5,912 bases of DNA from a virus (taxonomy: Duplodnaviria > Heunggongvirae > Uroviricota > Caudoviricetes): the IMG/VR virus record IMGVR_UViG_2698536443_000004; one strand, written 5' to 3'. This document shows positions 1-3,000 of this stretch, piece after piece (the first letter of the stretch is position 1; the number at the start of each line of letters is the position of its first letter). Made by a program: the position numbers.

Positions 1-3000
1 GTTCATGGCTGAACTCCTGAAAATGGCTGTGAAAATATCGCCCGCGAAATGCCAGGCTGATTAGGAAAACAGGAAATGGGGTTAGTGAATGCTTTTGCTT
101 GATCTCAGTTTCAGCATTAATATCCATTTTTTATAAGCGTCGACGGCTTCACGAAACATCTTTTCATCGCCAATAAAAGTGGCGATAGTGAATTTAGTCT
201 GGATAGCCATAAGTGTTTGATCCATTCTTTGGGACTCCTGGCTGATTAAGTATGTCGATAAGGCGTTTCCATCCGTCACGTAATTTACGGGTGATTCGTT
301 CAAGTAAAGATTCGGAAGGGCAGCCAGCAACAGGCCACCCTGCAATGGCATATTGCATGGTGTGCTCCTTATTTATACATAACGAAAAACGCCTCGAGTG
401 AAGCGTTATTGGTATGCGGTAAAGCCGCACTCAGGCGGCCTTGATAGTCATATCATCTGAATCAAATATTCCTGATGTATCGATATCGGTAATTCTTATT
501 CCTTCGCTACCATCCATTGAAGGCCATCCTTCCTGACCATTTCCATCATTCCAGTCGAACTCACACACAACACCATATGCATTTAAGTCGCTTGAAATTG
601 CTATAAGCAGAGCATGTTGCGCCAGCATGATTAATACAGCATTTAATACAGAGCCGTGTTTATTGAGTCGGTATTCAGAGTCTGACCAGAAATTATTAAT
701 CTGGTGAAGTTTTTCCTCTGTCATTACGTCATGGTCGATTTCAATTTCTATTGATGCTTTCCAGTCGTAATCAATGATGTATTTTTTGATGTTTGACATC
801 TGTTCATATCCTCACAGATAAAAAATCGCCCTCACATTGGAGGGCAAAGAAGATTTCCAATAATCAGAACAAGTCGGCTCCTGTTTAGTTACGAGCGACA
901 TTGCTCCGTGTATTCACTCGTTGGAATGAATACACAGTGCTTATTCGTACTAATAAAATACCCAATTTTCTGTTTCTTGGTTGTGTCCAAAGTTATATTC
1001 AATATCTGGTGTTGATGTATCAATATTCTTCATACCATCAACAAGAGTTGATACAACAGCCAAATCTTGTTTGATTCTCATTAAATGGTATTTCTTCCGG
1101 CGCAATAAACTTTCAATGGCAAGTTTCTTCGTTGGGAATGCAAAAGATCTTTCTGCATTTTTTGCTACTTTCTTAATTGCATATCTATTTCTCCTTTGTT
1201 TCCATTCCTGTAACCACTGATTTGGTGCTGGTTTAAAATTAACAATCCAATGCGCAGGAACCAACCATGCATAATGCTCTGTCTGATGAAAAGCTATATA
1301 TTGAAGTGCGAATATTTTTATCCCATCTTCTTCAACTGTCGCCTGGAATCTCCAGAAAACAGGCATTCCATCATGTTCAGTTTCTGATTCAGGAAAAGGT
1401 ACGCTCCATGATTTTGTCATATCTCACCTCAAATAAGTGGTTTGCTGCCTAATTTCATTTTCTGGCGACCAACACAAGTCACCTCGCCGTCAGTTGTTTT
1501 GATTTCCGGTAGCCTGCCGCGTAAATGGCTACGTTTGGAAGACATACACCAGTTTCTGGTTGCTTATGTCCAAACTCATTCGCGTACACAATGGCCGCTC
1601 GCTCCAGATTGCGTCTGTATTCTTTCTGTTGCCAGATCACGTCCTGTGCCATGAACTTAATTGGCTTAGCGTCTTCTATGCGCTCAGGCGTTTCGTGAGT
1701 ACCTTTAGCCTGAATCTGCGCTCTGCTTAGAGTAGGGCGGTGTAATACTTCTGAACTTATTGCTTCTTCGCGGGCCAGTACGCCGTTAGCTAATGCCTTT
1801 GCCTTTAAACGCTCACGACGACGAGAACGTGAATTGCCTTTGAACTGAGTTCTGCGTGTCATATAGACCTCCTGATGAACTTTGGTGGTGTGGTAGGTGG
1901 GAGACCCATTTCGACCTGTTTCGGCCTACTTCAATTCGGCAATAGTCCCGCAGGCCTCGCCGCTTTACGTGCGACATATTCCCGTCCATGAACCCTTCAC
2001 CACACCCCAAAGTTCACTTTGGTTATTGCGCTTTGTCAGCGCCGTAGATTCATATTCGAATCGTTGTATATTCACCGCCCTGGTGAGTAATGCGTCCTGC
2101 TGACGACGATAATAATGAACCAATAGTTCGACATTATCAAGAACTATTGGTACGAATTTTGGTGATTTATTAACTCTACGAAGTATGATTCTGATATATA
2201 AGGAAATTTATTTTTGAAAATGTGGCTGATGAAGGTTATGCGGCAGGGATCATAACTGCATGGTTTAGCGAGTTACATCAATAAATACAATTGGTTATGT
2301 TTTTTAGGTGGGCGAACGTGAGGCAAAGAAAACCCGGCGCTGAGGCCGGGCTAGATTTTAAAGTATTTATCTTTTAGAGATGTAGATGTAAAACTTTTCG
2401 CCTTTGAAAATTTTTTGTCATCAGAAGGGCTTATGAACTCATCTTTTTTGTAGGGAACCGCTAATGCTGCATCACGTCTGCGAGGCAGCTTGCTTACTTC
2501 CTCGCGCTTTTTCATGATCAGTTATCCTTTAATAACCTATACAGTTTTGTAGGGGTACATCCTGAGGATATTGTTAAGTTCGTAGCACGCCTTTTCCGCC
2601 CATCATCGTATAAACGAAAACCAGTAGTAGACGAATTTTCTGCGTCAAAAACTATAGACAGTATAGCGTCCCCAGACTTTTTTTGCCATTCGCATGTGCC
2701 GTTAGTTGGTTTCGTCATCTGTAGACGCCAGTCAAGAACGCCATCACTTATAGCTGAGAGATCGTTTAGTACATCTAGTACGGATTGATATCTTTCATTT
2801 GGATCTACATGAATGCATTTGTTCACTATTGTTATTAATTTTTTATGTATATGGGGAGGATACTCTTTTAATGGATAGCAGCCATTAATTATCGACTCTC
2901 TGAGTTGTTCAATCGTGCTAAATGCAGATCTTTCTCTTTCAAAATTATCATGTCCAACACACATTCTATATATGGTTAATCCTGCCTGATATATGTCATA

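Follow-up and report, generated by a model that had tools for sequence, protein, structure and literature searches.

The DNA considered here is a stretch of 5,912 nucleotides (nt) from a virus of the class Caudoviricetes (IMG/VR record IMGVR_UViG_2698536443_000004); we refer to this whole stretch as the window. Over bases 1400-2400 it shows 100% identity to phage 933W, as it does to many other Shiga toxin (Stx)-converting phages, and the window represents the early-left/immunity region of Stx phage 933W. Our subject is the untranslated leader that lies between the nutL site and N, the gene for the antiterminator protein. Coordinates are those of the leftward transcript, that is, of the minus strand, unless they are marked +. 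The 933W record places nutL at window positions 2028-2094(-) and annotates nothing in the stretch from boxB to N. This stretch holds a long RNA hairpin that is unmarked in every phage record that we examined, and over which some records place spurious open reading frames (ORFs). An Rfam scan of the window at E<=1 likewise returned no family on the N-leader stretch; its sole match was Lambda_thermo (313-371(-), a full-length match to the lambda cIII thermoregulator with 88.5 bits and E = 2.8e-21).

The first-pass annotation, made from the sequence alone, had proposed that boxB is followed in the leftward transcript by a distal arm, about 100 nt of GC-rich sequence, a proximal arm, the Shine-Dalgarno (SD) sequence and the N start. 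All of these elements are present in this order, at slightly corrected coordinates (Table 1). When the minus strand from 2050 to 1850 is folded, the proposed long stem appears in both the minimum-free-energy (MFE) and the centroid structure. Positions 2017-1999 pair with 1875-1894, forming 19 pairs that include a terminal G.U and leave A1886 bulged, and G1998.U1895 is a possible 20th pair. Pair probabilities along the helix are 0.86-1.0, and a repeat finder detects both halves of the stem. The 201-nt segment has a fold z-score of -4.1, with none of 200 shuffled sequences folding as well. In addition, the best long-range helix of the leader has 20 pairs, compared with 10.9±1.4 (maximum 16) in 300 dinucleotide shuffles, none of which reaches 20. 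The long stem between nutL and N is real. It begins 10 nt after boxB and ends 1 nt before the SD of N, so that boxB and the ribosome-binding site (RBS) of N are placed at the same end of one helix. The enclosed interior is 55.8% GC, compared with 41% for the whole window.

Conservation of the helix was assessed in 80 IMG/VR loci with a near-identical 933W-type N, in 80 loci with a lambda-type N, in H-19B, phi80, PA2, Louie, SPN9CC, epsilon34 and P22, and in three enterobacterial prophages; a profile search of genome contigs with the N alignment gave 4 loci. The helix occurs in all 160 testable loci, which carry 933W-, lambda-, phi80-type or other N genes and represent 29 distinct arm combinations, and it is also found in P22; the boxB type, like the N protein, differs among these phages. 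The HK106/mEp234 leader is 98% identical to that of 933W. In six distinct leader sequences, the MFE structure of a 420-nt context missed the stem because of spurious pairings far upstream, and anchored detection recovered it.

What varies among relatives is the sequence that the helix encloses. Interiors range from 40 to 198 nt and are unrelated to one another, and even behind the same N we find three leader classes whose interiors, of 61, about 100 (96-104) and 198 nt, differ wholly in sequence; the H-19B leader belongs to the class with the short interior. Whatever the interior, the helix starts 10-21 nt after boxB and ends 12-34 nt before the AUG. Within the helix, a CUUUGG/CCAAAG core is nearly invariant. 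The inner helix, by comparison, exists in at least nine sequence versions, all of which pair; these include GGUGUGGU, GGUGUGUG, UGUGUGUG, GGUGAAUGCAG and GAUGCGAUG, as well as GAUGUGG, GAUUGGAUG, AGUAGCGCG and the ACUGGCG of P22. The combination of a constant core with an exchangeable inner helix and interior is shared by lambda, P22, phi80, H-19B/933W, and prophages of Enterobacter and Klebsiella.

In a gapless alignment of the arms alone, 87.0% of cells are paired, whereas only 37.5-42% are paired when the partner strand is slid. Both sides have changed in 15 of the 20 pairs. The covariation score is 0.365, compared with 0.173 for shuffled alignments, and none of 500 shuffles reaches the observed value. 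The N-leader helix is strongly conserved and is a real RNA helix; within the lambdoid family of N-leader RNase III hairpins, it is the member from 933W.

Table 1. Features of the N leader and its surroundings in the window, with coordinates given on the strand shown
Feature	Position	Strand	Basis or remark
pL-like sigma-70 promoter, TTGATA-17-CATTAT	2112-2140	-	only promoter-like site in 1400-2400
boxA-like CGCAUUACU	2086-2094	-	upstream end of nutL in 933W record
nutL spacer dyad, UCACC-AGGGC-GGUGA	2072-2086	-	predicted in fold of 5' product
Second nutL spacer hairpin	2062-2047	-	predicted in fold of 5' product
nutL boxB, GCGCU-GACAA-AGCGC (GCGCUGACAAAGCGC)	2042-2028	-	fold and sequence
Local alternative hairpin, CCAAAG-UGAA-CUUUGG	2022-2007	-	overlaps outer 5' arm
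5' arm of long helix, GUGAACUUUGGGGUGUGGU	2017-1999	-	fold, repeat finder; inner part boxC-like, GGUGUGG
Enclosed interior, 104 nt, branched, exchangeable module (class A)	1998-1895	-	
3' arm of long helix, ACCACACC-A-CCAAAGUUCAU, bulged A1886	1894-1875	-	fold, repeat finder
SD of N, AGGAGG	1873-1868	-	1 nt past helix, 5 nt ahead of AUG
N AUG	1862-1860	-	
N antiterminator gene, 127 amino acids	1479-1862	-	also annotated in 933W record
nutR boxB, UCGCU-GACAA-AGCGA (UCGCUGACAAAGCGA)	5541-5555	+	same GACAA loop as nutL

The closest known counterpart is the hairpin of the lambda N leader. When the lambda leader is folded from pL +1, boxA lies at +34-41, boxB at +50-64, the arms at +81-96 and +187-203, the SD at +211 and the AUG at +223. 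The arms of 933W read GUGAACUUUGG-GGUGUGGU / ACCACACC-A-CCAAAGUUCAU; those of lambda, GGCUUUGG-GGUGUGUG / CACACACC-A-CCAAAGCU, are near-identical and carry the same bulged A. The likeness to the lambda RNase III site that had been pointed out earlier therefore consists of sequence homology of the arms and of equal placement between boxB and the SD of N. Because the architecture is the same, the arms are near-identical and the same A is bulged, the 933W stem is, as judged from sequence, the homologue of the lambda N-leader hairpin, and its reading as an RNase III site is supported by that homology.

The two hairpins share their position in the pL transcript, the CUUUGG/CCAAAG core and a GGUGUG-type inner 5' strand, and in both an upstream complementary copy is able to form a local hairpin that ends at the core. 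They differ in several respects. The helix has 16 base pairs (bp) in lambda and 19-20 bp in 933W, whose outer helix is 3-4 bp longer; the enclosed lengths are 90 and 104 nt, and the interiors are unrelated. The distance from boxB to the helix is 16 nt in lambda and 10 nt in 933W, and that from the helix to the SD is 7 nt and 1 nt, respectively. A further predicted pairing of GCAUUCA with the AUG region in lambda is absent from 933W. Finally, cleavage and regulation have been demonstrated for lambda only.

In lambda, the N leader is listed as an RNase III target in a passage of PMC5371410 that cites Steege 1987, and N mRNA is positively regulated by RNase III (PMC9032294). The rnc70 enzyme, which is competent to bind but defective in cleavage, still regulates N mRNA (PMC8708148). 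N and Nus factors at NutL repress translation of N across a highly structured spacer, and RNase III relieves this repression from NUTL; simple steric occlusion is considered insufficient, NutL lying about 200 nt from the SD (PMC5725501).

We consider it likely that the stem is the 933W version of this RNase III-sensitive hairpin of lambdoid N leaders. Because boxB and the SD share one end of the 933W helix, at a shorter distance from each other than in lambda, we infer that the same circuit would operate. By analogy with lambda, N bound to boxB in the modified transcription complex would repress, in cis, translation of its own mRNA. Host RNase III would then bind the helix and cut both of its strands at the conserved core. 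Binding or cutting would bring the relief, and the cut would part NUTL from the N message, lift autorepression and tie the supply of N to RNase III activity. The predicted cuts, transferred by alignment, fall within the nearly invariant core, between 2007 and 2006 (CUUUGG followed by GG) and between 1885 and 1884 (C followed by CAAAG). The lambda cuts on which they are modelled, which we take to be at +88/89 and +196/197, are geometrically consistent with the folded lambda helix and would leave the 2-nt 3' overhang expected of RNase III.

Several points weigh against this interpretation. The observed covariation reflects about 8-10 swaps of modules by recombination between related phages rather than 28 independent events, and the script that anchored the helix picked the best-pairing partner. 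The strand test is modest, with 87.0% of cells paired on the transcript strand and 81.6% on the opposite strand. The predicted cut positions depend on our presumed lambda sites, which were checked for geometric consistency only, and the literature yielded no cleavage or expression data for 933W or H-19B. Moreover, Neely and Friedman are said to have reported in 2000 that N of the H-19B type needs NusA, and not NusB, S10 or boxA. Since autorepression in lambda uses Nus factors and an H-19B-type N would be less dependent on them, 933W may depart from lambda in the repression arm of this circuit.

A detail beyond the first-pass annotation, and new in this analysis, is a local hairpin that competes with the long helix. 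A second CCAAAG (2022-2017) stands directly upstream of the 5' arm and can pair with the CUUUGG at 2012-2007, with UGAA between them. This pairing has a probability of 0.0 as long as the leader is uncut and of 0.97-0.99 in the 5' product of the predicted cleavage, so by this model the local hairpin would form only after a cut. Its 3' end coincides exactly with the predicted cut. An equivalent hairpin occurs in every lineage with a differing sequence: (U)CAAAGC/GCUUUG(G) in lambda, CCA-GGCGC/GCGCU-UGG in Klebsiella, a version of their own in phi80 and PA2, and, in P22, CCAAAC/GUUUGG, which has a swapped pair at the site of a G.G mismatch in the long helix. In an alignment of these hairpins, 90.9% of cells pair, compared with 10-58% when slid, and three of seven pairs have changed on both sides, although this alignment was fitted to the structure and so is a weaker test than that of the arms.

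The outer duplex that would remain after the cut has a predicted energy of -11.7 kcal/mol. As an addition to the circuit known from lambda, the upstream CCAAAG may fold onto CUUUGG after the cut as a 3'-terminal hairpin, and this hairpin might compete with the outer duplex, help the fragments to part and cap the NUT fragment. More speculatively, the three strands could constitute a single device. The upstream CCAAAG would be silent while the leader is intact and, after the cut, would snap onto the core of the 5' arm as a blunt 3'-terminal hairpin. The N mRNA would thereby be actively freed from the outer duplex of 10-11 bp, and the NUT RNA retained by the antitermination complex would be capped. 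With its boxC-like strand, the N leader would then be an exchangeable equivalent, in miniature, of the leader-trailer helix of rrn, and 'delivery' from the transcription complex would be the way in which it forms. We offer this proposal tentatively and regard it as rather doubtful.

The comparison with rrn starts from the inner 5' strand of the N-leader helix, which we take to be boxC, with a presumed consensus of GGUGURUG. In both systems a nut-like site precedes a long-range helix whose 5' strand is GU-rich and of the boxC type. The lambda nut sites have been described as boxA, spacer, boxB and boxC (PMC2724277), and the boxC of rrn operons (UCUGUGUGGG) lies in the 5' strand of the leader-trailer helix that RNase III cleaves, where pairing outweighs sequence (PMC10250234, PMC8632103), as it does in the phage leaders. 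The rrn helix, however, encloses 1.5 kb of rRNA, flanking 16S, and serves ribosome assembly, whereas the phage helix encloses 40-200 nt and would serve translational control of a regulator.

The first-pass annotation had also held that the stem can sequester the RBS of N. If so, the helix or pairings that flank it would hide the RBS until a cut by RNase III opened it, as in lambda cIII and adhE, where RNase III likewise acts positively on a 5' leader (PMC5371410, PMC9032294). The helix does end 1 nt from the SD, within the usual 30S footprint, and in the predicted fold of the uncut leader CC 2022-2021 pairs with the two G's that open the SD (unpaired probability 0.31/0.24). In cIII and adhE, however, the RBS is inside the structure. 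In 933W, both the SD and the AUG are outside the helix, and their predicted accessibility is unchanged by cleavage: the mean unpaired probability from SD to AUG is 0.585 for the intact leader, compared with 0.58 for the 3' product. The leader thus differs from those that sequester an RBS, since its SD and AUG are neither inside the helix nor freed on its removal. The helix of P22 stops 22 nt, and that of phi80 34 nt, ahead of the AUG, and for lambda, simple steric occlusion has been judged inadequate, as noted above. Sequestration of the RBS by the stem was therefore not borne out, and we consider direct occlusion unlikely.

A structural insulator is a second alternative. Here the helix and its interior would do no more than compact an untranslated leader of about 240 nt, blocking Rho or RNase E before N is made, with no regulatory role for RNase III. 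Such a role would agree with interiors that are unrelated in sequence and yet always structured and GC-richer than their surroundings. It would also agree with the result of searching the class-A interior for a structure of its own, which returned one covarying pair only and for which we claim no function. An insulator, however, leaves unexplained the near-invariant core and bulge held in common with the lambda RNase III site, the kept placement of boxB and SD at the base of the helix, and the local hairpin, conserved in its turn, whose end falls at the predicted cut. We give this alternative little weight.

The inverted repeat might instead act in the DNA, as a recombination joint, a module boundary or a protein-binding palindrome, with the RNA helix incidental. 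Exchange of modules at the arms is indeed evident. The 933W module, from arm to arm, is 91-97% identical in phi80, PA2, ArgO145 and Louie, where the flanks are unrelated and the N proteins differ. In addition, some recombinants have joints inside the arms, with a lambda outer arm joined to a 933W interior in Louie and in two further loci of our set (L143 and L170) and to a class C interior in another (L145). Nevertheless, the inner arms diverge in sequence and remain complementary, 39 cells of the arms alignment are G.U on the transcript strand, and the lambda counterpart is a known RNA-processing site. We therefore rejected the palindrome reading, on the covariation in the arms and the G.U cells, as highly improbable; the exchange of modules more plausibly follows from the conservation of the arms.

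That the interior encodes a small protein is scarcely credible: a 65-amino-acid ORF with a TTG start does occupy 1813-2010(-), and some records annotate such proteins, but it has no SD and overlaps the N start out of frame, and we rejected it because phages with an essentially identical N have their interiors swapped for unrelated sequence of the other lengths given above. Two annotated hypothetical proteins lie across the hairpin interior, in Louie (L086, 703-837) and in phi345 (PV189402, 41357-41598); both are probably spurious, because close relatives have interiors there that differ in length and are unrelated in sequence. A terminator in the leader was also considered and rejected, as there is no terminator-like site within 1863-2104 and no U run after the 3' arm, which is followed by CAGGAGG.

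The RNase III-sensitive hairpin that we favor would make the 933W stem a solid but largely expected regulatory element. Its interest lies in its setting, as the lytic cascade has N for its first switch and leads on to Q and, in the 933W phage family, to expression of Shiga toxin. If the 933W N leader is processed like that of lambda, the activity of host RNase III would set the amount of N after induction. RNase III activity varies with growth rate and stress, and the enzyme would then be a testable host input into the development of a toxin phage. The comparative result is also useful for annotation, because it describes a hairpin, unmarked in the records examined, with a constant core and a swappable interior across lambdoid phages and prophages.

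The boxB of 933W is of the P22/H-19B type, unlike that of lambda, and its N protein appears to be of this type too. The nutL boxB 15-mer is identical to that of P22 nutL, and the nutR boxB (UCGCUGACAAAGCGA) has the same loop, which agrees with the earlier observation of a P22-type GACAA loop at both nut sites. The arginine-rich motif of N (GNSRSRRRER) shares 6 of 10 residues with that of P22 gp24 (GNAKTRRHER) when the two are compared by eye. A BLASTP comparison of N with gp24 aligned the C-terminal 30 residues only, and by this measure the C-termini of the two proteins are homologous. Phage epsilon34 (L089, 760-1240), compared with SPN9CC (L088), combines two lambda-like elements, the arginine-rich motif (RRRERRAALQ) and the GAAAA loop of boxB, with an N body and a leader that are otherwise of the H-19B type. 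In epsilon34, the arginine-rich motif and boxB thus appear to have been swapped together, with the hairpin retained.

Upstream of nutL, the transcript is predicted to start near 2104, on the basis of the promoter and of an alignment in which 2103-2091 (UCAGCAGGACGCA) matches lambda pL +2..+14 and the start of the P22 leader. Two overlapping inverted repeats at 2108-2150, CCAATAGTTC/GAACTATTGG and GATAATAATGAAC/GTTCGACATTATC, lie over the pL-like promoter and are candidate OL operators.

Some loci of the comparative set have unusual arrangements. One IMG/VR locus (L051, IMGVR_UViG_3300045988_069239) carries in tandem a class C leader, ~17 nt from the start of N, a boxB tail, a class A leader and N, which reflects either chimeric assembly or a genuine duplication. 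A 394-bp contig assigned to Xanthomonas pisi (L090, NZ_JPLE01000327.1) encodes a 99% identical 933W-type N and is most likely assembly contamination. In PA2 (L085, 560-1000), a phi80-like nutL region and the hairpin module are present with no N-like ORF behind them; the hairpin is followed by a promoter-like TTGACT-17-TATATT, small hairpins and a terminator-like GACGCGCCAGCGUC-U7. ArgO145 probably has the phi80-like nutL region and the module as well, because the coordinates of its match are identical.

At the other end of the window, identity with 933W ends at 5832, within cII. The last 80 nt (5833-5912(+)) are the end of a multicopy element annotated as an IS3 family transposase, which occupies a median of 3 places in those E. 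coli genomes that have it. From this junction, the source of the window is read as a 933W-like prophage with an insertion sequence in cII.

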